The position numbers and the translations under genes are program-made. The notes beneath the pieces were generated by a model. The model made no database searches. It saw only the letters and a program-made list of their open reading frames with translations, and was not told the origin of the DNA. Positions 2,934 to 43,227 of a stretch of DNA of 64,000 nucleotides are shown here, one piece after another. The number at the start of each line of letters is the position of its first letter. Within the stretch, counting starts at the first letter, position 1. This stretch comes from a virus: IMG/VR virus record IMGVR_UViG_3300025120_000020, one strand, 5' to 3'.

Positions 2934-2935
2934 GA

Positions 2936-3130: not shown

Positions 3131-3148
3131 GATGGTATTAGCCTGAAT

Positions 3149-3385: not shown

Positions 3386-3388
3386 AAT

Positions 3389-4006: not shown

Positions 4007-4012
4007 ATTTTA

Positions 4013-4783: not shown

Positions 4784-4829
4784 TAATTTGTGTTTATAGT
4801 GTATTATAATAGTATAACCCAATTATACT

Positions 4830-6420: not shown

Positions 6421-6729
6421 TTAAAAATAAAGTTCATCAAAGAACCTATTTCCATTATATGCCTTGTCATCAATCCAAAAATCATATGCTGGCTTGTTCA
6501 TCTTAAGCTCTGTATATTTGACCCCCCACTCTTTAAGTTGCTTCTTTGTAAGCTCCGACCAATCTTTTCCTGAGTTCCCTCCTCTCGCAGTCCAGTAGAT
6601 TACTGTATTGCCACTATCAACCAATCCATTGAAATATTGAATACGAGCTTTCATAGGGCGAGCTAATTCATATCTGCCCCGACTATCTGTGCAAATAGTC
6701 CCATCAATGTCTACGATAAAAGTTTTCAT
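6421..6729 (-). CDS. Minimal HAD-family phosphatase (capsule-biosynthesis type)
   Basis: Motif I VDIDGTI, motif II WTAR, K-P and IDDK motifs III/IV. Confidence 0.85.
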   Translation of the reverse strand: MKTFIVDIDGTICTDSRGRYELARPMKARIQYFNGLVDSGNTVIYWTARGGNSGKDWSELTKKQLKEWGVKYTELKMNKPAYDFWIDDKAYNGNRFFDELYF

Positions 6730-7202
6730 AGTTCTTTAATTTTTGTTATAATTTTCGTGGCACTTATATCCTCAGAGAATGGAATGAAATATACCTCTGT
6801 TTGTCCACAGGATGCCTTCTCAGACGGATGTAATGTCGCAATGCTATAATCTCCACCTTTATACCAACGAGAGGGCTTAAGGTGTCTCAGGTAGCCAGAA
6901 ACTGTTGCGTCATTAAACACAAACACATGGTCAACGCACTCATGACAAGCTACAAGAAAGGCTCTCTGTTTTTGGCTGATAATAGGTCTTTCTGAACCCT
7001 TATTTTGCTTAACGCTTTCATCTCCATTCACGCCGACAACTAATTCGTAATCATCGGGCAAATCTTCCTTAATTGATTTCAGAAGGTGTGCATGACCTGC
7101 GTGAAACAAATCAAAGCAACCATTAGTAAAGGCCATATTTTTCGTTCCCGTCGAAAAATGGTGCATAATCTTAGTTATATTAGCTATTTTAGGATGATTC
7201 AT
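6726..7202 (-). CDS. rfaE2: Heptose-1-phosphate nucleotidyltransferase (RfaE domain II / HldC-like)
   Basis: FTNGCFDLFHAGH (HxGH), VGVNGDESV..NKG..RPI, KGGDY. Confidence 0.9.
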   Translation of the reverse strand: MNHPKIANITKIMHHFSTGTKNMAFTNGCFDLFHAGHAHLLKSIKEDLPDDYELVVGVNGDESVKQNKGSERPIISQKQRAFLVACHECVDHVFVFNDATVSGYLRHLKPSRWYKGGDYSIATLHPSEKASCGQTEVYFIPFSEDISATKIITKIKEL

Positions 7203-7948
7203 ATCGTTGCTGTTCCAGCTTTACTGATGACAATGCTACAGCAAGTCTGAGCGTAGTCAATCGCTGAATCTATATCTTGATTGAATAAATAGTTAGTCGC
7301 AAAAGCAGCAAGGAAAGTGTCTCCAGCACCACTCACATCTCTCACTTGAGCGACAGATTTCAAAGGGTATTTCTTTCCTTTGAACCTACATCCTCCACCC
7401 CCTAAAGTAACAATAAGGTTATCCATACCCATCCCTTTAAATCCATTCTCTTTGTATTCCTTTTCGTTGATTTTAATCAGATCAAATGAATTAGCCCACT
7501 TTGAATTATATTTCTTTTTAGTGTCTAAAAAAGACATTTGAGCATTATCTGCAATATATTTTAAATCTTTGTCTGTCAGATATCCCTTATTGTAATCAGA
7601 AACGATTACAGCATCATAAGACCACACGTTTGCTTCATGCAACTTTAATTCATCAATCTCTTTATACTCATCTGAATCAACGCGCAAAAACATTTGATTA
7701 GAATTAGAGTCAATATATCTAACCTTTGCTCCAGTGCTTTTATTGCTTTTAATCTCTACCTCTGCCTTTTTACCTAAATCATCAAGGCAAGCAATGACAT
7801 TTCTATGGACGTTAAAGGCCATACCCATAAAGGTAACTGAGTCCTCCTGCTTAAAAACAGGGACTGGAGCTTCTGGGCATAATCTATCAGCAGACCCATA
7901 AGTAAAAATGTCTAAGCATGACTCTCCAATAACAAGAATTTTTTTCAT
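7199..7948 (-). CDS. rfaE1: Heptose-7-phosphate kinase (RfaE domain I / HldA-like, PfkB family)
   Basis: ILVIGESCLD..G..RLCPEAPVPV, VSDYNKG, DVSGAGDTF. Confidence 0.88.
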   Translation of the reverse strand: MKKILVIGESCLDIFTYGSADRLCPEAPVPVFKQEDSVTFMGMAFNVHRNVIACLDDLGKKAEVEIKSNKSTGAKVRYIDSNSNQMFLRVDSDEYKEIDELKLHEANVWSYDAVIVSDYNKGYLTDKDLKYIADNAQMSFLDTKKKYNSKWANSFDLIKINEKEYKENGFKGMGMDNLIVTLGGGGCRFKGKKYPLKSVAQVRDVSGAGDTFLAAFATNYLFNQDIDSAIDYAQTCCSIVISKAGTATI

Positions 7949-8319
7949 TTCTGCGAATCTCCTTTTTGAACCCTGTAAGAATCTTCCTCAAAATGCTGAG
8001 TGCTTACTTCAAATACAGAAGATTCTTCTATAGCAATGAGTTTATGAGGTATACAAGGCTTTAAATGAATTGTCTCTCCAACCCGCAAGATCATTTCTTT
8101 TTCCTCGGCATTACTCAAATCATAATATTTTAAAAGAAGTTTACCTTTTATTACGGCCCAAGTTTCTTCCTTCTTGATATGGTAGTGCATGGAGAACTCC
8201 GCTCCTTTATTAAACTTTAGAATTTTTCCGCAATAAAGTTCGTTGTTCGTAATCCAGATCTCTTTACCCCAGCCCTTTGCATAAGTCTCAACAATACCTT
8301 TGATTGGCTCCATGCTCAT
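7945..8319 (-). CDS. Cupin sugar-phosphate isomerase-like protein
   Basis: KGWGKE, SMHYHIKKEETW, PHKL, EVST (mannose-6-phosphate isomerase type II-like cupin). Confidence 0.8.
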   Translation of the reverse strand: MSMEPIKGIVETYAKGWGKEIWITNNELYCGKILKFNKGAEFSMHYHIKKEETWAVIKGKLLLKYYDLSNAEEKEMILRVGETIHLKPCIPHKLIAIEESSVFEVSTQHFEEDSYRVQKGDSQK

Positions 8320-11644: not shown

Positions 11645-12445
11645 TTATACACACTCTAAGACTTGTTTCCAATCCATTTCTCCAATCGCAGATGTTAGCT
11701 TTGTAATGTCTGCTTGGGTAAATTTTTGATACTTGCCCTTGAGTTTTGTGGGCATCGCTATCTGCTTGACCTTTGCCCCAGAGTTTTCTGCCATTTTATC
11801 TGCAATTTCTTTAAAAGAAACAGAGTTGCCAGTCCCAACATTAAAAACCCCATTAGTATCATGATGAAGCATCCTATAATGAACTTCACAAACATCTTCC
11901 ACATGCACGAAGTCTCTACTAGCTTTTCCCCTAAATACTTTGATCTCGCCATCTTCTTGAATTTGTTTGATGAATTTCGTTATCGGACTTGCCTGATCTC
12001 CTTTATGTTCCTCATGTGGACCATATACATTAAAATAGCGAAATCCTTGATAGGGATGATCTTCGTTCAAAAGCCAGTTGTCAAACATATATTTGCTATA
12101 AGCATAAGGGTTTAGAGGGACGCAGAACTGATCCTCTTCAAATGTCTCTGCTGCACCATAGACAGAACCACTGCTAGCGTATTGAAATTTAACACCCATA
12201 TTCGCACATAATTGATAAAGTGTGCCAGAGAATATAAAATTCTCATTTAAAATCTTTTTTAAGTCGGTTTCCGTAGTGCTAGAGTTAGCTCCAAGATGAA
12301 TGACGGCATCAATACCATTCAAAGGAGGCAAACTACCACCGAACTTAATATCGTAAGGAACGACCTCTATTCCTCTTTTCTCAAGATAAGGACAGAGATT
12401 TTTGCCAATAAACCCCTCACTGCCCGTAACTAATACCCTTTTCAT
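11645..12445 (-). CDS. rfaD: ADP-L-glycero-D-manno-heptose 6-epimerase-like SDR
   Basis: TGSEGFIG, HLGANSSTTE, YASSGSVYG, PLNPYAYSK..FD, FRYFNVYGP.E.HKG..AS, YQKFTQAD. Confidence 0.88.
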   Translation of the reverse strand: MKRVLVTGSEGFIGKNLCPYLEKRGIEVVPYDIKFGGSLPPLNGIDAVIHLGANSSTTETDLKKILNENFIFSGTLYQLCANMGVKFQYASSGSVYGAAETFEEDQFCVPLNPYAYSKYMFDNWLLNEDHPYQGFRYFNVYGPHEEHKGDQASPITKFIKQIQEDGEIKVFRGKASRDFVHVEDVCEVHYRMLHHDTNGVFNVGTGNSVSFKEIADKMAENSGAKVKQIAMPTKLKGKYQKFTQADITKLTSAIGEMDWKQVLECV

Positions 12446-14442: not shown

Positions 14443-14622
14443 TCAACGGGCTTCGCCCGTGTCTGGATAGTTAGCGTTCTCCTTGCAAAAAATAGGGTTA
14501 GCATCTGCTTCAACATCAAAAGGGGTGTCCACAAACTCGCAATGAAAAACCCTTGTATATCCGTCCCCCTCCATATTGCCCCCACAGTTAGGGCAACAGA
14601 ACAATATTCGTTCTTCGTTCAT
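14443..14622 (-). CDS. Small Cys-rich (zinc-ribbon-like) protein, 59 aa
   Basis: Own translation MNEERILFCCPNCGGNMEGDGYTRVFHCEFVDTPFDVEADANPIFCKENANYPDTGEAR; ATGA overlap with the clp gene. Confidence 0.7.
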   Translation of the reverse strand: MNEERILFCCPNCGGNMEGDGYTRVFHCEFVDTPFDVEADANPIFCKENANYPDTGEAR

Positions 14623-20073: not shown

Positions 20074-20761
20074 CTTTATAAGACTCCCAGCAGAACTCGT
20101 CTGAGCAGAAGTGATTTAGGTTTGGGCTTTGGAAAGTTGGAGATTTGCCTCCAGATCTATTGCAAGTAGCTTTATACATTTGTGAAGCTGCAAATTCATC
20201 TTTGTTGTGATGAACAATTGTCTTAACTGCTTGCGTCTTGACTCCAAGTCCATCAATAACAGACTTGATTTGAAAATCAAAAGGATGATTATTATCTTCA
20301 ATAAAATAAACTGGGTCTAAGTGTTTAATATCTATATGAGATAATCCAAAATAAAATAAATTATTAAAAATATAAGAGTCGTAAAAGGGGACGCAAACCT
20401 TAAGGTTTTTAAAATCTTCCTTACTGTATTCGGATAAAATCAGGGAATTGCAATCATTCAAAGATGCACTGGAATACATTTTTTTTAAATCTTTTACCCC
20501 TTCATTATTTTTTGCAAAAAGAACTAACTTGCTAGACCTTTCGTTTTCATCAACTCCATTATTTATAACAGGAATCCTAAGACCAAATACTAAATTAATA
20601 CGCTCCTCTTGAAAAAGATTGTTAAATATTCTAAATCCATAAAAGCTATCCTCAACCAAGACAACGCGATCCAAGGAGTTGAGCTTTGCGATTTCCAATA
20701 TTTTCTCTGCGGTCAGAATAGACTTACCTATACTAAACTGGCTCTTAAAGAGAGGTATCAT
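20060..20761 (-). CDS. Stand-alone PHP domain of DNA polymerase III alpha (degenerate metal sites)
   Basis: FKSQFSIGKSIL, VVLVED..YG, LVFG, LVLFAKNNEG.K.L align by eye to the DnaE N-terminal PHP. Confidence 0.8.
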   Translation of the reverse strand: MIPLFKSQFSIGKSILTAEKILEIAKLNSLDRVVLVEDSFYGFRIFNNLFQEERINLVFGLRIPVINNGVDENERSSKLVLFAKNNEGVKDLKKMYSSASLNDCNSLILSEYSKEDFKNLKVCVPFYDSYIFNNLFYFGLSHIDIKHLDPVYFIEDNNHPFDFQIKSVIDGLGVKTQAVKTIVHHNKDEFAASQMYKATCNRSGGKSPTFQSPNLNHFCSDEFCWESYKDATT

Positions 20762-26594: not shown

Positions 26595-27623
26595 CTAACA
26601 TGCATTCATATCGTTTGCAACCATTTTTCTCACCAAGCCTAAAAAATCTGTTTTTGGAGACCAACCCAACTCTCTTCTAGCTAAGTCAGAATCTCCCAAA
26701 AGCAACTCTACTTCAGCAGGGCGATAAAAAGCTGGACTAATCTGGACTAAGATCTTGTCTTCATGGTAATACTTCTCGTTAACACTATAGCCATCCCATC
26801 GACATTGATCTTTAGCAAATCCTGCAAAATTGAAAGCCTCCTCAACAAATTCTCTAATCGAGTGTGTTTCGTCTGAAGACAAGACATATTCTTTTGGATG
26901 CTCTTGGTTGAGCATCAACCAAACACCTTCAACAAAATCTTCAGCATCGCTCCAATCTCGCTTGGCATCTACATTACCTAACTCAAGAGGCATAAAATCG
27001 CCACTAGGGTATTCCTTTTGAATACGAGATACATTTTTGGTAATCTTACGAGTTACAAACTCTTCTCCGCGACGAGTTCCTTCATGGTTGAATAACCATC
27101 CTTGAATAGCAAACAAATGATAGGAATCTCTCCATACTTTTACCATGTGCCTCGCACTAGCCTTAGAAACACCATAAGGGCTTCTTGGTCGCAACGGATG
27201 AAGTTCTGACTGTGGAGAATGTAAAACGTCTCCAAACTCCTCTGAGGAGCCAGCGTTGTAATAACGGCATTTAGGACAATGCTTGCGAATTGCCTCAAGC
27301 TGATACATTACAGCCATAGCATTTGTGTTCATGTGGTTTGCTGGTTGGGTCCAACTAACCCCCACAAAAGAATTAGCCGCAAAATTAATAAAATAATCTG
27401 GCTTCTCTTTAGAGATAACCTCTTCTGTATTTACAGAATCAGTAACATCTAAGTCAATGAGTTTAAAGCGTGGATTATCTACCAGATGAGCAATATTGCT
27501 ATGATTTTTGACACTTAAACGCCGAACTCCAGCGATAATAGTGTGCTCAGTATTCTTCAGAAGATAGTCAGCCATGAAGCTGCCATCTTGACCTGTTACT
27601 CCTGTAATAATAACTTTTTTCAT
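26595..27623 (-). CDS. gmd: GDP-mannose 4,6-dehydratase
   Basis: ITGVTGQDGS, SSEEFG, PRSPYGVSK, FNHE..RRG..FVTRKI, LGNVDAKRDW, RPAEV..LLGD. Confidence 0.93.
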   Translation of the reverse strand: MKKVIITGVTGQDGSFMADYLLKNTEHTIIAGVRRLSVKNHSNIAHLVDNPRFKLIDLDVTDSVNTEEVISKEKPDYFINFAANSFVGVSWTQPANHMNTNAMAVMYQLEAIRKHCPKCRYYNAGSSEEFGDVLHSPQSELHPLRPRSPYGVSKASARHMVKVWRDSYHLFAIQGWLFNHEGTRRGEEFVTRKITKNVSRIQKEYPSGDFMPLELGNVDAKRDWSDAEDFVEGVWLMLNQEHPKEYVLSSDETHSIREFVEEAFNFAGFAKDQCRWDGYSVNEKYYHEDKILVQISPAFYRPAEVELLLGDSDLARRELGWSPKTDFLGLVRKMVANDMNAC

Positions 27624-28456
27624 CTATTTTTTATCCAATCAATTAAATTTTTAGTTGGCTCCCAGCCCAAAAGGTCTTTTGCTAAGACTGAATTACAAAG
27701 AGTATCTTGAGCTTCACCCATCCTATCGCCATGATAGTTAATTTTTTTTTCGCCATACATTTCCGAAACCTCCTTTACAGAGTGATTATCTCCTCTACCT
27801 AATTCAAATAAATTTCCAAAAGATTTTTCCTCAAAAATTAAAATCAAAGCATCGACAATATCATCTACATGAGTGAAATCTCTACGTTTTGATCCATCTC
27901 CATAAATATTAAATGCCATACCCTCTCTGTAAGCTTTGTCCCAAATACCAATTAAAGTTGCTGCTCCTTCCTCTAATTGATGAGGTCCGTATACATTATA
28001 AAACCTTGCGGTGCTTGCTTGTATATTAAATAGTTTTTGATAAAGTTCAACCGTTTCTTCAGACAAATCTTTTGTGAATGTGTATGGATTTTTAAATTTA
28101 CCTGAATGGTGAGAAGAACTCCCAGCAAAAATTAGTGGGATATTATTGGACCTACAATATTCGCAAACATTAAATGTTGCAATCACGTTGTTTTTTGCAT
28201 ATAAAACTGGATCTTTAAATGAGGGTTGGATTCTAGCTGAAGCAGCCAAGTGATAAACTATATCAACATCTTCCTCAATGTTTTCTAGGGGGTATTCTAA
28301 AATGTCAGCATTAATGTAATTAACACCAGAAATTTCATTTTCTTTTTTACCAGTAGAGTAATTATCTATGCTTACAACATCATGGCCATATTCCAATAAT
28401 CTTTTGCAAAGATTATAACCTACAAATCCCGCTCCTCCTGTAACTAATATTTTCAT
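27620..28456 (-). CDS. NAD-dependent nucleotide-sugar epimerase/dehydratase
   Basis: TGGAGFVG, HLAA, PYTFTK (YxxxK), RFYNVYGP, GDG...RDFTHVDD. Confidence 0.9.
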   Translation of the reverse strand: MKILVTGGAGFVGYNLCKRLLEYGHDVVSIDNYSTGKKENEISGVNYINADILEYPLENIEEDVDIVYHLAASARIQPSFKDPVLYAKNNVIATFNVCEYCRSNNIPLIFAGSSSHHSGKFKNPYTFTKDLSEETVELYQKLFNIQASTARFYNVYGPHQLEEGAATLIGIWDKAYREGMAFNIYGDGSKRRDFTHVDDIVDALILIFEEKSFGNLFELGRGDNHSVKEVSEMYGEKKINYHGDRMGEAQDTLCNSVLAKDLLGWEPTKNLIDWIKNR

Positions 28457-29622
28457 TTGTTTTTAGATTGAAAGTCTTGGATATCATCAATAATAATTAT
28501 TAAGTTACCCACTTTGTAATGACCAAGCAAATTATTGGAAGATATAGCTGAACTTAGATTTTTTATTAAGTTGAAATCTTTCTGATCAAAGTTTCTCCCG
28601 TCAACATAAACCGTTACCTGATGATAATTAAACTCTGTTATTTTTTTAATTCTGCTATCCAAATTAAATAATGTTTTGTCGCAGTTTTCTGAAACATAAC
28701 TTTTTACATTCTCAGAGCTACAATCTTGATAAATTACATCACAAACAGGCTCAAGATGATAAAGAAGAGTTGGATTGCAGTATTTACAAACAATAGCTAC
28801 GTCATATTTAGGGAAAATAATCGGACTCAAATATTGATCTAGTAAAACATCAGTCCCCCATTTTCTAAAGAAGTTTCTCTCATTTTTGTGGTTTGTTTTT
28901 TGCCACTCTGGAGAATCTACCCCTGTATCACCACCAGAGATTTTGTTAAACCTACTGCCTCTAGAGGTGAAATGATAAACTAATCCATCCCAAGTTTGAA
29001 TCAATTCATATCCATTAATAACAAACCTATAAAAAAGATCGGAATCTTCCCTGCTTTGAGGAGCGAACAATTCATCATGTCCACCTATGCTCAAAAAATC
29101 TTCTTTATACATGCACCAAGGAGCGAACATTCCATTAGTCGTTTCGGAATCAGGCTTTTTCTGGTAATCATTTTTACACCAATCCACAAACTTATCATAA
29201 TCAAAGTCTTTCACTTCTGAACCTAGATCAACTAAAACTTTTGATTGGTGATCTGGGTGAATGGGAGGCTCTAATCTAGTAGCGCAAACAACCTTCCTTT
29301 TATCTAAATGTTTTAATATTTGATAATCTAAGTCGGGAGCAGCAACCATATCAGCATGAAAAGCCATGATTATATCTGTTGGGGCCATAGCTATCCCCTT
29401 GTCGAACATACCAACAATACCGACTCTTTCTGGTCCAGAATTTTTATAACAATGAAGTCTTTCATCATCCAATGAATCTAACCATTCTGAAGTTCCATCT
29501 GAAGAAGCGTCATCCAAAATTAAAATATGGTGAGAACCCTCCAATTTCTTTAAAGAATTGTAACATATTTTTAAGAATTCTAAATTATTTCTAGCTGGGA
29601 TTACAAAAGTAATAGCTCTCAT
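28453..29622 (-). CDS. GT2-family glycosyltransferase
   Basis: FVIPARN, DDASSDGT, HADM, GGHDE.F...REDSD. Confidence 0.88.
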   Translation of the reverse strand: MRAITFVIPARNNLEFLKICYNSLKKLEGSHHILILDDASSDGTSEWLDSLDDERLHCYKNSGPERVGIVGMFDKGIAMAPTDIIMAFHADMVAAPDLDYQILKHLDKRKVVCATRLEPPIHPDHQSKVLVDLGSEVKDFDYDKFVDWCKNDYQKKPDSETTNGMFAPWCMYKEDFLSIGGHDELFAPQSREDSDLFYRFVINGYELIQTWDGLVYHFTSRGSRFNKISGGDTGVDSPEWQKTNHKNERNFFRKWGTDVLLDQYLSPIIFPKYDVAIVCKYCNPTLLYHLEPVCDVIYQDCSSENVKSYVSENCDKTLFNLDSRIKKITEFNYHQVTVYVDGRNFDQKDFNLIKNLSSAISSNNLLGHYKVGNLIIIIDDIQDFQSKNK

Positions 29623-29623
29623 A

Positions 29624-30265
29624 TTATTTTTTAAGGTTAATTAAGAAAAAGAAAACTCTACAATTATTAAGATCATTTGTAATGTCTGTCCCATACTGAT
29701 TTCTAGAATTCAACAATAATTCTTGTAAACCAAATCCTGATATTTTAGAGTCTGGAAAGTTTTTTGTTAGAATTTCTATCATCTCCTTTGAGTCGTATTC
29801 ATATAAGTGAGTTCCTCCATCATACTCCCAAGTAGGGGTTAATCTTCTTGGAGTAGTTATAATTATTGTTTTTTCCGTAACAAATTTTAAGGACTGTAAA
29901 TATTGATCTATTTTTTCTGGAGGAAGATGTTCAAATGTTTCTATCGAAGTGCATACATCAAATTCATTCTCTTCAAATTCATCTTTCAAATTGAAAATAT
30001 CGCAAGTTAAAAAATGAACATTATCTCTTCCGAACCTGCTCTGACTTTCTTTGATTGAATCTTCATCTATGTCAATCCCTGTAACAGACTTTGCGCCAAG
30101 AGAATAAAGGATCATAGCTCCATATCCTCTACCAGTAGCTGCATCTAAAACTTTCTGACCCTTCGTCCAATAGTCAGCTATCACATAACGATCAATCATG
30201 GTTGAGGTTGCAGGATTTTTGAGTCTGTTTATCTCTTCAAGAGTGTGATTATCTGTAGTTTTCAT
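29624..30265 (-). CDS. Class I SAM-dependent methyltransferase
   Basis: VLDAATGRGYG, GIDID, FDV..SIETFEH, ITTP. Confidence 0.88.
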   Translation of the reverse strand: MKTTDNHTLEEINRLKNPATSTMIDRYVIADYWTKGQKVLDAATGRGYGAMILYSLGAKSVTGIDIDEDSIKESQSRFGRDNVHFLTCDIFNLKDEFEENEFDVCTSIETFEHLPPEKIDQYLQSLKFVTEKTIIITTPRRLTPTWEYDGGTHLYEYDSKEMIEILTKNFPDSKISGFGLQELLLNSRNQYGTDITNDLNNCRVFFFLINLKK

Positions 30266-30954
30266 TAAATTAAATCTTCAAAATTTTTAAAAGTAACTTT
30301 ATATTTGTCAAGAAGAATCTTCAAAGTATTTTTGAAATGAGTGTAATTTGACAAGTCCCAAACATTTTTATTAAATTTGCCTGATATGTGCGACTGAAAG
30401 TAAATAAACTTATCATCTACAATGGACTGCTCCTTACTTGTGATGCAGGTATTGTTCGCAAACAGTTTACAGTCTTCTCTAAAGTGGATGTTTTTATTAG
30501 TTAACTCGTGGATTGCTAAATACTTGAATTTTTCTTGTGCTGCATAAAAAGACCCTTGAGTAGCATTCCATCCACACATCCTCCATCCTAATGGATGAAC
30601 ATCAACAGAATCCCATTCAATTAGACAATCATTCAATCTTTTCTGAGATTCATAATAATCTAAATCCAAGAATTCATTTTCTCTACAGTAATTAGGATTA
30701 GTATATGGCCTACAGTGAGTGTGGCCATGACCAGCAAATTCTATCCAATCTTGATCTTTCCAAAACTTAACCCAATCTTTATGTTTCGAAAGGGGGTATA
30801 ATCCTTGGTAATTAGAGGGCGTAAACAAAACGAATTTACATCCAAACTCCTCATTTAAAAGTTGAATATATTTAGTGCATTCGTCATTAGGTAATCCCCA
30901 ACCTTCTTCTGGATGAAGGTCGTCAATTGCTATTACTATATCTAAACTTTTCAT
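30265..30954 (-). CDS. Polysaccharide deacetylase-like (NodB/DUF2334-type) protein
   Basis: IAIDDLHP, EFAGHGHTH, E F, R..GW, QSH. Confidence 0.7.
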   Translation of the reverse strand: MKSLDIVIAIDDLHPEEGWGLPNDECTKYIQLLNEEFGCKFVLFTPSNYQGLYPLSKHKDWVKFWKDQDWIEFAGHGHTHCRPYTNPNYCRENEFLDLDYYESQKRLNDCLIEWDSVDVHPLGWRMCGWNATQGSFYAAQEKFKYLAIHELTNKNIHFREDCKLFANNTCITSKEQSIVDDKFIYFQSHISGKFNKNVWDLSNYTHFKNTLKILLDKYKVTFKNFEDLI

Positions 30955-31888
30955 AAAATCTTTTTAAAAATATTTCTTCTGAATATTCTTTTTTATACAA
31001 TTGTTTTGTTTCCTTTGAGCAATGATTGTAAAAATCACTATCACTAAATAATTTTTCCATTAGCTTACGAGCCTTTTCTAAATCTCCATCTTCTACAGAT
31101 AAACTTGGGTGTAGCTTTCTTTGAGTATCTAAATAAGAATACGCTATACATGGTATACCTAAGTAAGAACAATTTAAAGAAAAAGTTCCTGCGGCAAAGG
31201 TTCTCATCAAATGGATTGAATATTTTCTCTTTGATAATTCAAACATCCAATTAGACCAATTTGTATAATCAATATGAGTTAAATTTTTTATTTTTGTCTC
31301 ATCTTCTTTAAACCTACTTCCGCGACCCATAGTTGGTGCATATAATTCTTCGCTAAACTTCGATGCAATAGCAAAAGAGTCAATACCTCCATACCAACTT
31401 GAACAATTACCTCCCAACATAACTCCAGACCTTTTATTCTCTGGGTGCAAATCTTTAATTGCGTCTTCAATCATTAACGATTGAAAAGTTTTTATGGATT
31501 TATTTGGGAAAATTCCTTTGTAATATTTTACATCTGATTCATTATGAGTAAATATAACGTCAGCTTCTGCCAAGTTATTAAGGTAGTGTAGTTGATCGTT
31601 AATTGAGTAATCTTGGAAATACCAAAATGGTCCTTCCTGCATAACTATTATGATCTTGCAAAATTTTTTAATTTCAGAGATTTTAAAGATGGAAGGATTT
31701 TTTTTAGATAAAATAACTATCCCAATGTCATAATGTCCATAAAGAGAATTATATTTTTCAAAAGGTGGGTTAAAAACATGAGCATTTAAAGAACAGGCCC
31801 AAGCCAAATCTGTTCTAATATTTGGATGTTCTCTACTAACCATATATGGAGCTGTAGAGTCTCCCTCTTGGAAAAAAGCCACCTTCAT
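30923..31888 (-). CDS. Putative GT-B glycosyltransferase
   Basis: MQEGP.W, ADVIF.HN, AGTF.LNC.YLGIPCI, C-terminal Y...YSE helix; embedded in the glycan cluster. Confidence 0.6.
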   Translation of the reverse strand: MKVAFFQEGDSTAPYMVSREHPNIRTDLAWACSLNAHVFNPPFEKYNSLYGHYDIGIVILSKKNPSIFKISEIKKFCKIIIVMQEGPFWYFQDYSINDQLHYLNNLAEADVIFTHNESDVKYYKGIFPNKSIKTFQSLMIEDAIKDLHPENKRSGVMLGGNCSSWYGGIDSFAIASKFSEELYAPTMGRGSRFKEDETKIKNLTHIDYTNWSNWMFELSKRKYSIHLMRTFAAGTFSLNCSYLGIPCIAYSYLDTQRKLHPSLSVEDGDLEKARKLMEKLFSDSDFYNHCSKETKQLYKKEYSEEIFLKRFYEKFRYSNSN

Positions 31889-31889
31889 T

Positions 31890-32501
31890 TTAAATTGTAT
31901 CGTATAAATTATTTTGACGCTCTTGCTTTTTGATATCTTTTACATGAAGAATACAAAAATGCTCAATAGGTTCACTAGATAATTTAACTTGATTCTTCGC
32001 TCCCGCTAAGACCTCATGAACTTTATTCTGCCACTTAACATGACCTTTAGTGGAAACAAAACGAGATTGAAAATCAGGAAATCCCTCCCAACCCATTTTG
32101 TTTATTTCCCAGTTGTATTTTTTGATATGTTCTTCTGTCGCCCCACGAACGACATTGATCCTTGGAATCCAAAGCAGATCAATATCTCCTTTTTGCACTA
32201 CTGCCCTTAATGCATTCAATAATGAAGGTGGTATTTGTTCATCAGCATCAATCTGCATCAAATAGTCTTTTGTAGATAACTCAAATAAAGTATTTTTAAA
32301 AGCAGAAAAATCTTTCTGAAAGTCAAAGTAGTTTATTTTCAACCCGCAAAGCTTACAAAAATCTTCGATATCTTTAGTTACTTTGTTCTGATCTGCCAAG
32401 ATGACAATCTCCTCATCTGGTAAAACATATGGTTCAAGTGAATTAATTAATCTTTTAAATTCAAAAAACTCGTCTGCTACCGTTATCCCGTAAGTAATCA
32501 T
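31890..32501 (-). CDS. GT2-like glycosyltransferase
   Basis: ITYGITV..E, DFSAFKN, IDADE, PRIN, PDFQ.R, W..KVHE. Start placed at MITYG. Confidence 0.85.
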   Translation of the reverse strand: MITYGITVADEFFEFKRLINSLEPYVLPDEEIVILADQNKVTKDIEDFCKLCGLKINYFDFQKDFSAFKNTLFELSTKDYLMQIDADEQIPPSLLNALRAVVQKGDIDLLWIPRINVVRGATEEHIKKYNWEINKMGWEGFPDFQSRFVSTKGHVKWQNKVHEVLAGAKNQVKLSSEPIEHFCILHVKDIKKQERQNNLYDTI

Positions 32502-32540
32502 AAAAAAACTCCTTCTAGGTAAGCACAACCTAGAAGGAGC
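32502..32540 (-). terminator. Rho-independent terminator after hsp20
   Basis: 12-bp stem CTCCTTCTAGGT/ACCTAGAAGGAG followed by T7 on the minus strand. Confidence 0.8.
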
Positions 32541-32561
32541 GATATAAGTCACTTCAAAGTT

Positions 32562-36081: not shown

Positions 36082-36669
36082 ATGGATTATGACCCAACAG
36101 ATCCTGAATTAACTGATTTAGTTAAACAGAGTGACCATGAAGAAGCTTTAGGTTTGCTGATAGAGAGGCATTCAGGAATTTATGTTGATATGGTGAGGAG
36201 ATACGCATCAAAATCCCTACCTTCAAATGACGTTATTGACATAATTGATGAAAAAGATTACATAATTTACAAAGCAGCCTTAGATTATGACGAAAACAAA
36301 GCTAAGTTTTCCACCCATGTTGGCAACAAAGCAAAATATCTCTGTTTGAGCAAAAAAACAGCAAGGAAAAACGGTAAAATCATGTTGCCATTCGATTCAA
36401 TCGATTACTCCAAAGAGTCTGACGACTTGCACCCAGATGAAAGTTGCGAAATTAAAGAAAGCATGTTTTCAATTGTCGAACTTATAAATAGTCATCGCGA
36501 TGAAAGAGTAAAAACTATTTTTAAAGAACGCTACTTTGGAGGAGAAAAAGGTAAACTTCAAACTTGGAAAAATATTGGAGAACAAATTGGTGTCTCTGCT
36601 CAGGGCTGCATAAACATTCATGACCGAACATTAAAAGAATTTAAAAAACAATTTAAAAAAAATGCATAA
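36082..36669 (+). CDS. Phage RNA polymerase sigma factor (sigma70 family, regions 2 and 4)
   Basis: LIERH.G....VRRY, KAALDYD..KAKFST; IF.ERY....TW..IG..IGVS..G....H. Confidence 0.85.
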   Translation: MDYDPTDPELTDLVKQSDHEEALGLLIERHSGIYVDMVRRYASKSLPSNDVIDIIDEKDYIIYKAALDYDENKAKFSTHVGNKAKYLCLSKKTARKNGKIMLPFDSIDYSKESDDLHPDESCEIKESMFSIVELINSHRDERVKTIFKERYFGGEKGKLQTWKNIGEQIGVSAQGCINIHDRTLKEFKKQFKKNA

Positions 36670-37744
36670 ACTAAATTTCGACGCTCCGTTCAATTCTCTA
36701 AGCTTAGGCAATGTTTCTTTAAACTTTCTTAGGGAATTAAAGAAAAAAAATATAGATCTTAATATATTTCCAATGGGTAATTTAGACTTCTCGGCCTTTG
36801 ACAAGTTACCAAAAGAAGATCAAGACTACATAAATGAAAATGCAGACAAAGCACTAAGTCGTTTAGATAGGTCAACTCCCACCCTAAAAGTTTGGCATAT
36901 TAACGGGTCAGAAAAAAAGATCGGAGATAATCAATTTTTATACACTTTTTATGAAGTGGACTCTCCTACAGAAGAGGAGGTTAGTATTGTAAAAGCTCAG
37001 AATCACGTTTTCTTTTCTTGTTCTGAAGCTGCTCAATCATTTAAGGATAAGGGTTGTGGCAATGTGTCCTATGTCCCGCTTGGTTTTGATACAGATTTTC
37101 ACAAGACAGATAAAGAATACCTTGGTGATGATGTGATTCACTTCGGTCTTATTGGTAAAATGGAAAGAAGAAAAAACACTCAAGCTCTTATTCAGCTATG
37201 GTGCAGTAAATTTGGCAATAACCCAAGATACCAATTAACTTGCTTGGTTGGAAATCCTTTTTTAAAGAAAGAACAAATGGATCAAATGATCACTCAAGCA
37301 ATGAATAATCAAAAGTATTCTAATGTTAACTTCCTGCCTCGACTTAAAACAAACAGTGAAGTTAACGACCTAATCAATTCAATTGATATCGATATTTCTG
37401 GCTTATCTAATGGAGAAGGATGGAATCTACCCGCATTTAATGCAACCGCTCTAGGCAAGTGGTCTATTGTGAGTAATTGCTCTTCTCATAAAGATTGGGC
37501 TACTAAGGATAACGCCATCCTTGTAGAGCCAGTCGGCAAACAACCTTGTTACGATAATGCCTTTTTTGTTAAAGGTAGTAAATACAATCAAGGAGAGTAT
37601 TACCGACTCCACCAAGATGGCATCTCTAATGGTTTGGATCAATCCGTTCAATTTGCTAAATCCGAAAATACAGAAGGTCTAAAGCTTCAACAGGAGTTTA
37701 CATACGCAAAGACCGCTGAAAAAATCCTAGAAAAAATTTATTAA
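36662..37744 (+). CDS. GT4-like glycosyltransferase
   Basis: VPLGFD..F, GKMERRKN, GEGWNLP...A.A.GK. Confidence 0.85.
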   Translation: MHKLNFDAPFNSLSLGNVSLNFLRELKKKNIDLNIFPMGNLDFSAFDKLPKEDQDYINENADKALSRLDRSTPTLKVWHINGSEKKIGDNQFLYTFYEVDSPTEEEVSIVKAQNHVFFSCSEAAQSFKDKGCGNVSYVPLGFDTDFHKTDKEYLGDDVIHFGLIGKMERRKNTQALIQLWCSKFGNNPRYQLTCLVGNPFLKKEQMDQMITQAMNNQKYSNVNFLPRLKTNSEVNDLINSIDIDISGLSNGEGWNLPAFNATALGKWSIVSNCSSHKDWATKDNAILVEPVGKQPCYDNAFFVKGSKYNQGEYYRLHQDGISNGLDQSVQFAKSENTEGLKLQQEFTYAKTAEKILEKIY

Positions 37745-38128
37745 ATGCCTATTTATATTTTTAAACACCCAGAAACAGAAGAATACAAGGAAATCGTTCA
37801 AACTATGAACGAAGAACATGTATATACTGACGAGTCTGGGCTAAAATGGAAGAGAATTTTTACAATCCCCAATGCAACTATTGATACAAAAGATGACGCT
37901 TGGAGCCACAATGGATTTGTAGAGAAAACTGGCAAGATGAAAGGAACTGTAGGCGATGTTCTAGATTATTCCTCAGAATTGTCTGCGATAAGGGCAGAAG
38001 CTAATGGTGGAGAAGATCCAGTCAAAAGAAAGACTTTCGATGACTACGAAAAGAAAGTGGGCAAAAAGCACATTTCTGATAAAAATAAGACTATCGAAAC
38101 CTCTAAGATCAAAATAGATCTAGATTAA
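37745..38128 (+). CDS. FmdB-like protein (Cys-less)
   Basis: MPIYIF......E..E....M..........KRIF..P. Confidence 0.6.
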   Translation: MPIYIFKHPETEEYKEIVQTMNEEHVYTDESGLKWKRIFTIPNATIDTKDDAWSHNGFVEKTGKMKGTVGDVLDYSSELSAIRAEANGGEDPVKRKTFDDYEKKVGKKHISDKNKTIETSKIKIDLD

Positions 38129-39027
38129 ATAACTGAGTATAGTCCACTGAAGGGAATGCAACCAGTAAAAGTTGGTGAGCTAAATACCAAGTAAGCTTCA
38201 CTAGCTCCAGTCACAATTTGCCCAGTGATAAATGTATCCTTGCTTCCTATAGATCCCCCGTCAGTCCCCGTGAGTATATTTTTTAAATTAGGTGTGCCAC
38301 CCACTTTCGCATCAGCAAAATCAGTAACTGCGGCAGGAGTTTCGCTACTGTTAACAGTTCTTGAACCAATGTAAAGATCTGATACAGCATCTCCACTATC
38401 ATTTAACGTGACTGAACCGCCAAAGCTAGCAGCGCCGATAACATCACAAGTTCCAGCAACACTCAAATTTCCACTAAATATTCCAGAGTGACTTGAATCG
38501 ACTTTTAGATGGGAATTAAAATTAACGTCACCAGCTTCGAAGTTCACTCCACTATTGAAAGAAACTAATAGAGAGTGATTAGTGCTATTGGTGGTAGTTC
38601 CTTCATGGTCTGCTAATATAACAGCTCCAGTGGTCTTATCAGCGAAAGTTGCTAATTTTCCTGCTAGAATTGTATTTTGTTGGCCAGAAGCTCCAAAATT
38701 TACCTGAGTCCCATTTAAGAGGGTATTAAAGTTACCAGATACATTAGTGTTAGCAGAACCATTAACCACGACATTATTTGTCCCCGTAACCAAGTTATTT
38801 GTCCCCCCTAAAACAGAACAACTACCGTCAATAGAGTTAGTAGATGATGTAGTTATAATTGGATCATTGTCAATTGTAGCACTACCATTGAAGTCTATTG
38901 GCCCATTAATATCCCTTGCTAGGTTAATCTGAACCCCAGTCGAAAGGTCAGTAAATGAAAAATCACCACTAGGACTCGTAAAAGTAGGTAATTGTAATTG
39001 TTGTGGTTGAATTTTAGTAAATGCCAT
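38125..39027 (-). CDS. Tail fibre/spike-like beta-helical protein
   Basis: SVLGGTNN.VTG..NVVVNG..N..SG repeats; S/T/G/N-rich; GTGTA motif upstream. Confidence 0.6.
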   Translation of the reverse strand: MAFTKIQPQQLQLPTFTSPSGDFSFTDLSTGVQINLARDINGPIDFNGSATIDNDPIITTSSTNSIDGSCSVLGGTNNLVTGTNNVVVNGSANTNVSGNFNTLLNGTQVNFGASGQQNTILAGKLATFADKTTGAVILADHEGTTTNSTNHSLLVSFNSGVNFEAGDVNFNSHLKVDSSHSGIFSGNLSVAGTCDVIGAASFGGSVTLNDSGDAVSDLYIGSRTVNSSETPAAVTDFADAKVGGTPNLKNILTGTDGGSIGSKDTFITGQIVTGASEAYLVFSSPTFTGCIPFSGLYSVI

Positions 39028-39065: not shown

Positions 39066-39644
39066 ATGAAATTTACACTTTATAAGCCTAATGCTAAAAA
39101 TACTGGATCAGCATTCACCTTTGACTGCACTAAAGACAGAAACGGTAATCCAGTTCTTTTTGTCTCCATGATTCTTCAGCATAGCTGGAATAATGAACGT
39201 AAAACGGGTTCTTTTAAGGAGAACGCCAAGAATCCAGATAAATCTACTACAATTAAACTCACAGACATTGAAGCTGGAGAGTTCTTGTCCTCAATGAAAA
39301 CTAGGATTCCATTCTTAGGTTTTCACAAAACAGAAGAAAAAACAACAATCATTAAATTCACCCCTTGGGATAAAAATCGTATCATCAAAAACAAAGATGG
39401 TCAAGAAACCTTTAAATCGCCAGCTTGGGGTCTGACAGTTACAAAAAATTCTTCTCAATTCTTTAAACTTCCAATCGAAGCTGGAGAGGCTGAATGCCTA
39501 GCTGTTTTGCTTGAAGGCTATATAAAAGAGAGTTTAACTGCTAAATCAGAAGCTTATAAGCAGGATCAGCCCAAAAAAACTTACCAAAAATCCACACCTA
39601 AAGCGTCCGTAGTTGAGGACGACGATGACGATGTCCCATTCTAA
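39066..39644 (+). CDS. Putative single-stranded DNA-binding protein
   Basis: Aromatic/basic beta-rich body; acidic tail EDDDDDVPF like the bacterial SSB tip. Confidence 0.6.
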   Translation: MKFTLYKPNAKNTGSAFTFDCTKDRNGNPVLFVSMILQHSWNNERKTGSFKENAKNPDKSTTIKLTDIEAGEFLSSMKTRIPFLGFHKTEEKTTIIKFTPWDKNRIIKNKDGQETFKSPAWGLTVTKNSSQFFKLPIEAGEAECLAVLLEGYIKESLTAKSEAYKQDQPKKTYQKSTPKASVVEDDDDDVPF

Positions 39645-41337
39645 AATCAAAGTCTTAGTTCAGTCTAATTATTCCCGTATGGTAACGGGTTTCGGGAAGA
39701 ATATTAAAAATATTCTTCTCGCTCTTTATAATGATCCAGATATTGAAGTCGTAGAAGCTGCCAACGGAGTTCCTTATGGTAGGGATATAAGCACCCCTTG
39801 GGAGTCCTACGGCACTTATCCTTCTAATCCCAAGATCCTTAGTGCTATAGAAAAAGAACCATCTAAAAAAAGAGCCGCGCAATATGGATTTTATGTAATT
39901 GATGAGATCGTAGAAAAAGTAAAACCAGATGTATTTTTGGGGATCGAAGATGTCTGGGCTTTCAGGGAATATGAAAATAAACCTTGGTGGAATAAAACAA
40001 AAAAAATCATTTGGACAACTTTAGATAGCTTACCTATTTTAGATCAAGCTATTAAAATGGAACCAAAATGTGACAAAATGTTGGTTTGGGCTAGCTTCGC
40101 TGAAAAGGCAATGAAGGAGCTTGGTCATGAGACAGTGGAGACTGTTCACGGAGCCGTAGACTACAGTCACTTTAAACCTCTGGATAACAGAGAAGAGTTG
40201 CGAAAACTCCACGGTCTTCAAGACGATTTCGTAATTGGGTTTGTATTCAAAAACCAACTAAGGAAGTCTGTCCCCAATCTATTGGAAGGATTTAAAAAGT
40301 TTAAAGAGAAAAACCCAAGGGTCTCTGCAAAGCTCCTCCTGCATACGGACTGGGGAGAAAAAGATCATGGATGGGATATCCCAAGATACCTAAAAGAAAA
40401 AAACCTTGAAGACGGAAGCGTATTAGCAACTTATGTATGCCACAAGTGTGATGATTACTTTGTTCGGCCATATTCTGGAGAAGATAAAGACTGTCCTTCA
40501 TGCGGTTCTAAGAAATCTTTAAAAACGAAGAATAGCGGAAAGGGAGTAGGAGAGAAGGAGCTAAACGAGCTATATAACATGATGGATGTTTACTGTCACC
40601 CATTCACAAGTGGAGGTCAGGAGCTACCAATTCAAGAGGCTAAAGCTGCTGGACTAATCACTCTGGTTACAGACTACTCTTGTGGAACTGATTCTGCATA
40701 TGAGCATCAAGGTGGACTACCTCTATCTTGGAATGAATATAGGGAACCAAGCACTCAGTTTATTAAAGCTACTACATGTCCAGATAGTATTTGTGAGAGA
40801 ATACAGCAAGTTTACGAAATGGACGAAGACTCTAAATCTAAACTCATTGAAACTGGCAAAAAATATGTTAAAGAAAAATTCTCAGTTCGCAATACTGTAG
40901 ATAAATTAAAACAACATATAAAGTCAGTCGAAATAAGAACAAATGAAGAGGAGGAAAAGGAGGATAAGAAGCCTAGTATCTCAGTAGAGGATTTCTTAAA
41001 AGACACCCCACTTAAAGATAGAATTGCCGTAGTGCTTCCTAGATCGGCGGGTGATGTCTTAATGGCTAACTCTCTTATGGAGAACCTTCATAATCTCTAT
41101 CCAGACAAGAAGATATTCTTTGTCACCCAGCCAGAATTTTACGACCTTATTAACGATAATCCTTTTGTTCATAAAGTTATCCCTTATTCAAACTCATTTG
41201 AAGACTTGCATGTTCTTGAAGGCAGGGGGGATCATCAGGGTCTTTTCGATATAGCCTTTCTCCCTCACTGTATGACACAGAAGACATATAGCTATAACCA
41301 CAATGGGAAAGATAAAACTCAATTTAAATTAAGATGA
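39631..41337 (+). CDS. GT4 glycosyltransferase with zinc-ribbon insert, fused to a GT9 N-terminal domain
   Basis: TGFG, KNQLRKS, CHKC..CPSC, LYN.MDV.....SGG.ELP..EA.A.G; C-terminal PRSAGDVLM......L...YP...I.FVT......I..NPFV. Confidence 0.82.
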   Translation: MSHSKIKVLVQSNYSRMVTGFGKNIKNILLALYNDPDIEVVEAANGVPYGRDISTPWESYGTYPSNPKILSAIEKEPSKKRAAQYGFYVIDEIVEKVKPDVFLGIEDVWAFREYENKPWWNKTKKIIWTTLDSLPILDQAIKMEPKCDKMLVWASFAEKAMKELGHETVETVHGAVDYSHFKPLDNREELRKLHGLQDDFVIGFVFKNQLRKSVPNLLEGFKKFKEKNPRVSAKLLLHTDWGEKDHGWDIPRYLKEKNLEDGSVLATYVCHKCDDYFVRPYSGEDKDCPSCGSKKSLKTKNSGKGVGEKELNELYNMMDVYCHPFTSGGQELPIQEAKAAGLITLVTDYSCGTDSAYEHQGGLPLSWNEYREPSTQFIKATTCPDSICERIQQVYEMDEDSKSKLIETGKKYVKEKFSVRNTVDKLKQHIKSVEIRTNEEEEKEDKKPSISVEDFLKDTPLKDRIAVVLPRSAGDVLMANSLMENLHNLYPDKKIFFVTQPEFYDLINDNPFVHKVIPYSNSFEDLHVLEGRGDHQGLFDIAFLPHCMTQKTYSYNHNGKDKTQFKLR

Positions 41338-42443
41338 GCCACTTAGTAGAAGTTTATGCAAAAGATTTGGGAGTTAAAATTGGCGACCCACATTTCAAAC
41401 CTCATTTTTTTCCTGTTCTTGAAGATAACTATATTACCATCCACAATGACAATAAAGTTCAATCCAAAGAATACGATTATTGGGAAGAGGTTATTTGTTT
41501 AGTTAAGGAGCAAGTTCCAGATATTAAGTTTATTCAAATAGGCTCTGGACAAGAACCAATAATAAAAAATGCAACAAAGTTCGCTGCCACTTCCAGCATA
41601 AAGCAGTCTGCTTACATCATTAAGAATGCATTAATGCACGTTGGCATAGATAGTTTGCCAGTTCATATTGCATCATCGTTTGATAAACCTATTGTCTCGA
41701 TATACGCACATACTTATGCCTCTACTTGCAGACCAATCTGGGGTTCAAAAAATAATCATACGATAATTGAGTCCCACAGAGATGGTAAAAAACCATCTTA
41801 CTCTTTAAAAGAACAACCCAAGCAAATAAACTTGATCAAGCCAGAGGAAATAGCTAATGCCGTTCTGAAAAGGCTAGGGAAAAACAAAAGTTCTAGAAAA
41901 ACAATTTTTATTGGCGACAAATATAAGGAAAAATTTATCCATATTATACCAGATAAGAAATATGGGGTATCCTCCAAGCAAACAGTTCTTAGGTTTGATT
42001 TACATCATGATGAAGAAAATACTCTTCATTTATTCGCAAATAATAATATTTCTATTGTGACAAACAAGCCATTAGGAGATAAACTTTTAAGTCAAAAAAA
42101 TATAAATTGCATTAATTATTTTTGTGATCGATTCGACTCGGGGTTTGTCGAAAGAGCGAAAAATAAAGGTATAACTTTACGTTTATTTTGCACGGACGAG
42201 GGAAACCTTAGTGAAGAAAGGCTTAAGTTTTTTGACAACCAAATCCTTTTAATAGACGAATCTAAAAAAATAGAAGAAAATAAAAAACAAATTGAATTGC
42301 CCGAAAAAGATTTAAAAATAAAATCTTATACAATTTACTTTAAGAACGGGCAAGCACATCACTCTCTCTTTGAGGCAAATAACAAAGAGAGTTTAGACGA
42401 TATTTTTATTGACTTGGACAAACTTATGCTTTATACTGATTAA
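41334..42443 (+). CDS. GT9 (heptosyltransferase-like) C-terminal domain protein
   Basis: HLVEVY...LG, YITIH, K.Y..W.EV, IQIG, Q.A.II.NA..HVG.DS.P.HIA....KP.V.IY. Confidence 0.82.
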   Translation: MSHLVEVYAKDLGVKIGDPHFKPHFFPVLEDNYITIHNDNKVQSKEYDYWEEVICLVKEQVPDIKFIQIGSGQEPIIKNATKFAATSSIKQSAYIIKNALMHVGIDSLPVHIASSFDKPIVSIYAHTYASTCRPIWGSKNNHTIIESHRDGKKPSYSLKEQPKQINLIKPEEIANAVLKRLGKNKSSRKTIFIGDKYKEKFIHIIPDKKYGVSSKQTVLRFDLHHDEENTLHLFANNNISIVTNKPLGDKLLSQKNINCINYFCDRFDSGFVERAKNKGITLRLFCTDEGNLSEERLKFFDNQILLIDESKKIEENKKQIELPEKDLKIKSYTIYFKNGQAHHSLFEANNKESLDDIFIDLDKLMLYTD

Positions 42444-42444
42444 A

Positions 42445-43227
42445 ATGAGTGATAAAAAGATTTACGGACCTGATCTTTACAAGCGTAATGAGCATGGGCT
42501 TTTAGAAAATGCAGAATACGAATTTAATGAAGATGGCTCTGTAAATTGGAGAGCCATGATTAAGCCAGAGTTTCTTTACCCAAATAAAGATTGGTTTGAA
42601 GCTCGCAAAAAGGATGTTCCTACTTCACCAGAGGGCTTGGATGACAAACAGCTTTTGATCATGCTTGGTGGCATTAAGGAGTTGGCTCGACTCAGGGGAT
42701 TTCAGAGTGTTTCGTTCAAAACCGACCACCTTAGTGATACTTATGTTGTGGCTAATTGTGAAATTGTTTGGTCTCCTAATTATGAAAGTCATGATCAAGG
42801 TGTTGTTTACCAAGATGTCGCAAATGCGACACTACAAAATACAGGTTCTTTCGCAGCTAAGTTCTTAGAAACTATCGCTTGCAATAGAGCTTTTGTGAGA
42901 TGTGTTCGTAATTTTCTAAACATTCACATCGTGGGAGCTGATGAGATTGATAAATCAAAAGGAGCTGTAAATTCTCAATCAGTTGAATCTTCTGCTGATG
43001 AAACTATAGGAAGCATTCTTTCCCCTCACACAAGACTATTTCAAGACTGGCAAGACTATACTGGTGGGGGTAACAATTTCGAAGACTTCAAAAAAGGAGC
43101 CTTGCGCTCTCTATGGAAGCAAGAGATTTATCAAAATAAAGATGCTCAAAACTGGAATAACTTTGACGAAATACCAGTCAAAGAGGTTCGCAAAATTAGA
43201 GCTGCTATTAGAAAACTAAAGTCCTAA
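42445..43227 (+). CDS. Rad52/Sak-like single-strand annealing protein
   Basis: GGIKELA..RG, V.A.C.I, ETIA.NRA.VR.VR..L.I...G.DE; promoter TTGACT-N17-TATACT at 42409-42437. Confidence 0.6.
   Translation: MSDKKIYGPDLYKRNEHGLLENAEYEFNEDGSVNWRAMIKPEFLYPNKDWFEARKKDVPTSPEGLDDKQLLIMLGGIKELARLRGFQSVSFKTDHLSDTYVVANCEIVWSPNYESHDQGVVYQDVANATLQNTGSFAAKFLETIACNRAFVRCVRNFLNIHIVGADEIDKSKGAVNSQSVESSADETIGSILSPHTRLFQDWQDYTGGGNNFEDFKKGALRSLWKQEIYQNKDAQNWNNFDEIPVKEVRKIRAAIRKLKS

Follow-up and report, generated by a model that had tools for sequence, protein, structure and literature searches.

The stretch of viral DNA analysed here, called the window, comprises 64,000 nucleotides (nt) of the IMG/VR record IMGVR_UViG_3300025120_000020 and carries on its plus strand two adjacent open reading frames (ORFs) that probably encode the two halves of a single family 9 glycosyltransferase (GT9), the first half being attached to a family 4 glycosyltransferase (GT4). 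ORF1 (39631-41337, 568 amino acids (aa)), for which ATG 39625 or TTG 39613 are alternative starts, ends with ...AAA TTA AGA TGA, and the ATG within this ATGA is the start of ORF2 (41334-42443, 369 aa), which lies in another frame and overlaps ORF1 by 4 nt. The pair contains the following features.

39631..40935, plus strand: GT4 body of ORF1 (residues 1-435), recognised by PF00534 and phrog_2170
40438..40503, plus strand: zinc-ribbon insert of the GT4 (C270, C273, C288, C291), from Cys conservation and weak Pfam matches
40936..41019, plus strand: charged, low-complexity linker from the GT4 to the GT9 N-half, poorly conserved in a 74-sequence alignment
41020..41337, plus strand: GT9 N-half on ORF1 (residues 464-568 and stop), from hhalign, NCBIfam and Foldseek
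41053-41055, plus strand: ORF1 D475 of the Gly-Asp motif, aligned to WaaC D13
41334..41888, plus strand: ORF2 residues 1-185, with the last N-domain helix (4-12), the linker and the GT9 donor-binding C-domain
41649-41651, plus strand: ORF2 D106, aligned to WaaC D261
41664-41666, plus strand: ORF2 H111, aligned to WaaC H266
41889..42443, plus strand: ORF2 residues 186-369 and stop, an alpha/beta domain without assigned function that is specific to this viral family

The larger part of ORF1 belongs to the GT4 family, as PF00534 matches residues 306-411 with 32.3 bits against a cut-off of 26.4 and phrog_2170 ('glycosyltransferase') covers residues 12-433 (E 8e-25). The four Cys of its CxxC...CxxC insert are invariant across 74 homologues, and weak Pfam zinc-ribbon matches are found at residues 266-298. 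In longer ORF1 relatives (630-670 aa; L082:940-2862 and L083:4504-6456), the GT4 is followed by a DUF4214 domain, after which comes the GT9 N-half; in L082, where the relative is 640 aa long, PF13946 matches with E 1.6e-5. Among cultured phages, neither the region nor ORF2 gave any match by blastn and tblastn, and ORF1 found only distant GT4 genes, from cyanophages and a Pontimonas phage.

The final ~105 residues of ORF1, hereafter the tail, match the start of GT9 heptosyltransferases, including their catalytic Gly-Asp. Profiles were needed to obtain a signal in the PDB for both the tail and ORF2, single sequences being too weak: the tail alone gave a weak match to RfaF (residues 2-66, E 1.7), ranked under an unrelated one, and ORF2 alone gave none. 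With a profile of 17 tails, whose mean column identity is 57%, the best match among PDB sequences is the GT9 structure 3tov (residues 8-66, E 0.0022), and comparison with WaaC, WaaF, WaaQ and WaaU of E. coli, taken from the annotated K-12 record, reaches an hhalign probability of 96.1% (E 3e-9). More precisely, residues 26-82 of the profile align with WaaC 2-58, and the Asp that is invariant in the 17-tail alignment (ORF1 D475) falls on the catalytic D13 of WaaC. The NCBIfam models of heptosyltransferases I, II and III all place their position 1 at ORF1 residue 464, where the RfaF model places its position 2. At the structural level, the AlphaFold model of the tail (predicted local distance difference test score, pLDDT, of 79.5) brings GT9 structures to the top of a Foldseek search of 350,542 chains, with 3tov at E 6e-4 and WaaC chains at 1.5-1.9 Å over 56-57 residues with 26-27% identity; superposition on GT9 covers the first ~60-75 residues of the tail only.

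The complementary signature is found on ORF2, residues 80-148 of which are matched by PF01075 (profile positions 165-230) at 35.1 bits (E 1.2e-8; gathering cut-off 22). When residues 4-184 of its AlphaFold2 model (pLDDT 90.1) are compared by VIA, the closest structures are WaaC (Z 16.8), 3tov (16.4), RfaF (16.0), TibC (15.1) and a plant NDH subunit (15.0), the next fold after the GT9-type matches scoring Z 10.7; the root-mean-square deviation (rmsd) to the GT9 structures WaaC, 3tov, RfaF and TibC is 2.6-3.0 Å over 152-165 residues. Of 258 family members, 253 retain D106 and 251 retain H111, the counterparts of WaaC D261 and H266 in the alignment; K/R45, equated with WaaC K192 by position only, is retained in 251/258. 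The remainder of ORF2, residues 186-369, forms a confident alpha/beta domain of 184 aa (pLDDT above 90), for which hhalign detected no similarity to GT9 N-domains, to the ORF1 tail or to the N-terminal part of ORF2, and whose structural neighbours in the Atlas are viral hypothetical proteins of 199-236 aa without any named family. Weak Atlas matches of this domain to radical-SAM and aldolase barrels (template modelling score 0.42-0.57) were not trusted. In an alignment of 21 diverse ORF2 members, no invariant Cys and no conserved Cys cluster was seen. All of this agrees with the original prediction, which had described from the letters of the window two ORFs with an ATGA overlap, the first a zinc-ribbon GT4 ending in a GT9 N-terminal signature and the second a GT9 donor-binding C-domain followed by ~180 aa of unrecognisable sequence.

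The position of the break can be read from a naturally fused relative. In the 553-aa protein P0218, the tail is fused in frame to an ORF2 homologue via a 12-residue linker, and the alignment of this protein with WaaC spans residues 1-317 of 319 (probability 97.4%). In this alignment, the start of ORF2 (Met-Ser-His-Leu) falls on WaaC H139, at the start of the helix 'HAVER...AKSLGY', and the break thus corresponds to WaaC residue ~138. It precedes the interdomain linker by about one helix, so that ORF2 provides the last N-domain helix. The earlier proposals that the GT9 is split at its domain boundary and that ORF2 begins at the interdomain linker were therefore close rather than exact: the linker does lie on ORF2, but it is preceded there by the helix of residues 4-12.

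P0218 represents one of three clusters of fused forms (with P0268 and P0269), all of 551-554 aa and of the same architecture, the other two sharing 66-72% identity with P0218 within its first 175 residues. PF01075 matches fused relatives with 24-34 bits, and both ends of P0218 are recognised by the full-length heptosyltransferase models of NCBIfam. The fused locus is carried by the metagenome contig L084, which came from a metagenome scan, a scan of IMG/VR with P0218 having returned split loci only (L082 and L083). The gene order in L084 is the same as in the split loci; its GT4 gene (3072-4640, 522 aa) ends at a TAA within the DUF4214-like linker domain, and the following gene begins one codon later in the same frame. 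These gene ends point to a shift of the boundary, from GT4 + N-half followed by C-half + X to GT4 followed by N-half + C-half + X, where X is the domain after the C-half. In a quick maximum-likelihood tree with midpoint root, the three fused sequences form one clade, with a Shimodaira-Hasegawa-like approximate likelihood ratio test (SH-aLRT) support of 100, nested among split forms, which suggests that the fused form is likely a derived, secondary re-fusion, as far as a root set at the midpoint allows. A single fused ORF had been named as a possible sign that the split was spurious; fused proteins do exist, but they are not repaired versions of ORF1 and ORF2, since their N-half has left the GT4 and joined ORF2. 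As judged from these sequences, the fused clade supports the view that the two pieces belong to one enzyme.

The split itself is old and stable, and is not an artefact. Relatives of ORF2 in a 90%-clustered database number 151, and the 120 listed among them are 209-412 aa long, nearly all of them 369-397 aa, while an N-terminal M(S)HL is common to the 21 aligned members down to 32% identity. In all 80 related IMG/VR loci (35-89% identity), the tail is present and a stop in the ORF2 frame lies 0-27 codons upstream of the ORF2 start; in ~72 of these 80, an ORF1 of 567-672 aa ends at that start, the junction being an ATGA overlap, an overlap of 7 or 10 nt, or a gap of a few bases. An exhaustive HMMER search of the ORF2 family returned 2,962 representatives of clusters at 50% identity at E<=0.001 and 635 at E<=1e-30; among the best 150 representatives, 149 are 263-414 aa long and match from or near the first residue, as expected of the split type, the sole exception being P0218. 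Besides, contigs from other sequencing runs that span position 41334 show substitutions only, without indels. The upstream stops, the 149 split representatives and the indel-free contigs rule out the sequencing frameshift that the original prediction had named as a risk, and the split proves to be conserved in related phages. In addition, whole genes stand between the two halves in five loci, namely a second glycosyltransferase gene between the tail-bearing gene and ORF2 in L033, and a cupin gene at the same place in L055 (5577-5999), L062 (5559-5999), L063 and L064. The two products are thus distinct proteins, which rules out an obligatory fusion by frameshifting.

The interface that had been anticipated between the two proteins was also found in a complex prediction, for which alignments of ORF2 residues 1-195 and of the ORF1 tail served as input. 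The interaction prediction score from aligned errors (ipSAE) is 0.76, against 0.00 for the best of three controls; 58 of 80 solved complexes attain this mark, compared to 2 of 110 mismatched pairs. At least 88% of contacts are common to the docking runs, and the partner pLDDT is at least 66. Two stretches of ORF2 are predicted to contact the same tail helix, that following the Gly-Asp: residues 4-22, comprising the N-terminal helix and the stretch after it, and residues 108-115, the donor loop. This modelled contact pattern fits the geometry expected for a rebuilt GT-B cleft.

In the light of these data, we consider it quite likely that ORF1 and ORF2 together form an obligate two-chain GT9 glycosyltransferase joined to a GT4. 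In the proposed scheme, ORF1 would consist of a complete zinc-ribbon GT4, a flexible linker and the first ~105 residues of a GT9 N-domain, whereas ORF2 would complete this N-domain with its helix and add the interdomain linker, the nucleotide-sugar-binding C-domain and the extra 184-aa domain. The two genes would be translationally coupled via the ATGA overlap, and after translation the N-terminal helix of ORF2 would pack on the ORF1 tail, thereby rebuilding a GT-B cleft between the Asp of one chain and the donor site of the other. The outcome would be a 1:1 complex with GT4 and GT9 activities, probably adding two sugars successively to the same acceptor. The claim that the pair is a two-subunit, two-activity machine whose GT9 is active only when assembled fits the placement of the catalytic Asp on ORF1 and of the donor-binding Asp and His on ORF2; this distribution and the predicted interface stand, while the activity, the assembly and the activity of the GT4 are predictions. 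As modelled, the GT9 probably works only when both proteins dock.

Several observations weigh against this scheme. The docking score may partly mirror the memory that the model has of solved single-chain GT9 structures, and it may therefore show likeness more than proof of binding. The last ~45 residues of the tail form a motif that is strongly conserved in the family and has no counterpart in WaaC, and the phage N-domain is ~40 residues shorter than that of a canonical GT9. Moreover, the equivalog models of lipopolysaccharide (LPS) heptosyltransferases TIGR02193, TIGR02195 and TIGR02201, whose cut-offs are 134.6-185.3 bits, give 14-16 bits for ORF1, 18-30 for ORF2 and 24-57 for the fused P0218, and with scores so far below the cut-offs the donor could be another nucleotide sugar than a heptose-based one.

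Other explanations of the pair were weighed against the same evidence. The 4-nt overlap, as well as the fused N-half and ORF2 proteins of the minor clade, would also suit a frameshift of sequencing or assembly in a single gene, or programmed ribosomal frameshifting giving a GT4-GT9 polyprotein. We regard this as extremely improbable, given the ORF2-frame stop just upstream of the start in every one of the 80 diverged loci, the variable junctions, the whole genes between the halves in five loci and the indel-free junction in independent contigs; in addition, no canonical X XXY YYZ slippery site precedes the stop in the ORF1 frame, and no ORF2-related protein above 646 aa, as expected of a triple fusion, was found, which is weak evidence. 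A different idea is that ORF2 works alone as a permuted GT-B enzyme, its extra C-terminal domain binding the acceptor and the ORF1 tail being a docking tag or a relic. ORF2 indeed has two alpha/beta domains, and its whole length finds two-domain GT-B proteins and epimerases by Foldseek, but with an rmsd of 16-21 Å; fusions of Alg13 and Alg14 in reversed order do exist in some eukaryotes (PMC8993221). That ORF2 acts in this way nevertheless appears improbable, as its C-terminal domain is dissimilar to both the GT9 N-domain and the tail, as the tail keeps an invariant Gly-Asp within well-conserved columns and occupies the normal place of a GT9 N-domain in the fused clade, and as the predicted interface sets the Gly-Asp helix against the donor loop of ORF2.

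The GT9 module might instead be non-catalytic, with its halves doing no more than pairing the two proteins, so that the C-terminal domain of ORF2 is tethered to the GT4. The low scores against curated heptosyltransferase models and the shortened N-domain would be in line with such a loss of function, to which we give a similarly small chance: almost every one of several hundred diverged sequences retains the counterparts of WaaC D13, D261 and H266, and the phage carries a five-gene ADP-heptose pathway without any other GT9 seen in the window. The genes of this pathway lie at two places.

6421..8319, minus strand: operon of cupin, heptose-7-phosphate kinase-like, heptose-1-phosphate adenylyltransferase-like and HAD phosphatase genes
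11645..12445, minus strand: ADP-glyceromanno-heptose 6-epimerase-like gene (HldD), from TIGR02197

Within the operon, the kinase-like gene matches TIGR02198 (E 5e-35) and PfkB, the adenylyltransferase-like gene TIGR02199 (E 1e-37) and CTP_transf_like, the cupin Cupin_2, and the small HAD phosphatase of 102 aa HAD_PNKP, while the epimerase-like gene matches TIGR02197 with E 1.4e-70 (238 bits against a cut-off of 274.6). The kinase, the adenylyltransferase and the epimerase thereby resemble HldA, HldC and HldD, respectively. A SIS-type GmhA was not found in the window, and the operon cupin may fill the GmhA step or modify the heptose. Since this cupin is 46% identical to the cupin located between the GT9 halves in L055, the pathway can be tied to the transferase. 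For the obligate two-chain GT9, the presence of the pathway and the lack of another GT9 in the window make ADP-heptose of the phage's own making the most likely donor.

As regards the acceptor, the low scores against the LPS models and the N-domain shortened by ~40 residues make it probable that it is not canonical lipid A carrying 3-deoxy-D-manno-oct-2-ulosonic acid (Kdo), and Kdo2-lipid A is therefore an unlikely substrate. As a guess, we favour a phage structural protein or a glycan under construction on such a protein, and place the host envelope second. On the opposite strand within the glycosyltransferase island, at 38125-39027 (minus strand), lies a gene for a protein of 300 aa in which Ser, Thr, Gly and Asn abound and which has no family match; it is a possible fibre-like target of glycosylation. 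Other glycan genes are located at 26595-32552 and 2244-4822 on the minus strand and at 36662-37744 on the plus strand; the additional functions comprise a GDP-mannose 4,6-dehydratase, an SDR epimerase/reductase, two family 2 glycosyltransferases (GT2), a methyltransferase, a DUF2334 protein, a GT14-like 'Branch' enzyme and a DUF5672 protein. A second GT4 within this set falls in the same PHROG as ORF1.

To our knowledge, GT9 enzymes have been described as single chains only. Targeted literature searches gave no report of a split GT9 or of a half-enzyme carried on another transferase. The closest parallels are Alg13/Alg14 and the bacterial EpsF/EpsE, GT-B enzymes made of two polypeptides with the active site between them, among which re-fused lineages also occur (PMC8993221). 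Like ORF1 and ORF2, Alg13/Alg14 and EpsF/EpsE (Cps14F/G-type) have the acceptor-side and the nucleotide-sugar halves on separate chains and exist in split and re-fused forms, but they are GT1/GT28-like whereas the phage pair is GT9; as neither ORF1 nor ORF2 matches a Glyco_tran_28_C or Alg14 Pfam domain at E<=1, the likeness is one of architecture and not of descent. The phage pair further differs in that the break lies one helix inside the N-domain, in that the N-half is neither free nor membrane-anchored but covalently attached to a complete GT4, and in that the C-half bears an extra domain.

Compared to WaaC, WaaF and WaaQ, which are GT9 enzymes as well (PDB 2h1f, 1psw), the pair has the same fold, the same Gly-Asp base and the same donor-site Asp and His, but it consists of two chains instead of one, with a shorter N-domain, and its proteins reach 16-57 bits against the TIGR02195 cut-off of 134.6. 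The autotransporter heptosyltransferases of the TibC/Aah type are protein O-heptosyltransferases, TibC being a single chain that assembles into an iron-containing dodecamer. These enzymes (PDB 4rap/4rb4) are GT9-like and likewise resemble ORF2, with Z 15.1 over residues 7-184. An iron-binding Cys cluster characterises this group, and no conserved Cys cluster was seen in the 21-sequence ORF2 alignment; as WaaC and RfaF score similarly (Z 16.0-16.8), the structural match does not separate the subfamilies. As for phages, pelagimyophages carry rfaE and several glycosyltransferases, read as modification of the host O-chain in PMC7029224, and mycobacteriophage virions are glycosylated by phage glycosyltransferases according to Freeman et al. 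2023, as cited in PMC12619734; a search of these two papers met no mention of a split GT9 or of a GT4 fused to half a GT9.

Going one step further, the virus could run a glycosylation line in which a fixed 1:1 GT4-GT9 complex adds phage-made heptose and a second sugar to virion proteins, a scenario that we consider less likely than not. If true, it would be without precedent in three respects: a split GT9, a transferase that carries half of another, and protein heptosylation by a virus. Domain closure and cooperation in GT-B enzymes are an active question for WaaC, an antibiotic target, and a naturally split GT9 would offer a ready system for their study, with fused and split variants side by side. 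A half-transferase carried on another transferase would also be an unusual means of enforcing stoichiometry and the hand-over of substrate between glycosylation steps. The family is widespread, with hundreds of clusters at 50% identity in ocean viromes and uncultured marine phages, and in view of this spread and of the ADP-heptose pathway, abundant uncultured phages appear to build a heptose-containing glycan themselves, which would matter for how marine virions are shielded, how hosts are recognised and how superinfection is excluded. Relatives of ORF2 were also seen on five short contigs of metagenome-assembled genomes (L085-L089), assigned to two Flavobacteriaceae, one Cytophagaceae, one 'Bacteroidetes' and one Bacteriovoracaceae; with four of the five binned contigs, this gives a weak hint of Bacteroidota as host, and the contigs may be mis-binned phage DNA.

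On both sides of the pair, the neighbouring genes recur in related loci. Upstream, 39066-39644 (plus strand) encodes a 192-aa protein without family match whose C-terminus, DDDDDVPF, resembles the acidic tip of bacterial single-stranded DNA-binding protein (SSB); its homologue stands immediately 5' of ORF1 in L082, L083 and L084, and two of these three proteins end in ...EAPF. Downstream, 42409-43227 (plus strand) overlaps the end of ORF2 and encodes a 272-aa protein without assigned function. This protein may share a module with ORF1 and ORF2, since its homologue adjoins the ORF2 homologue on the 3' side in the same three loci.

Elsewhere in the window, a DnaE-type polymerase (16898-20761, minus strand) also looks divided into separate ORFs.

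20060-20761, minus strand: PHP-domain ORF of the divided polymerase
19459-20073, minus strand: RNase T/epsilon-like exonuclease ORF
16898-19459, minus strand: pol III alpha core ORF, with a PHROG profile match from position 330 only

Beside these replication genes, 14619-16901 (minus strand) encodes a Lon-like ATP-dependent protease of 760 aa (phrog_4871, E 3e-108).

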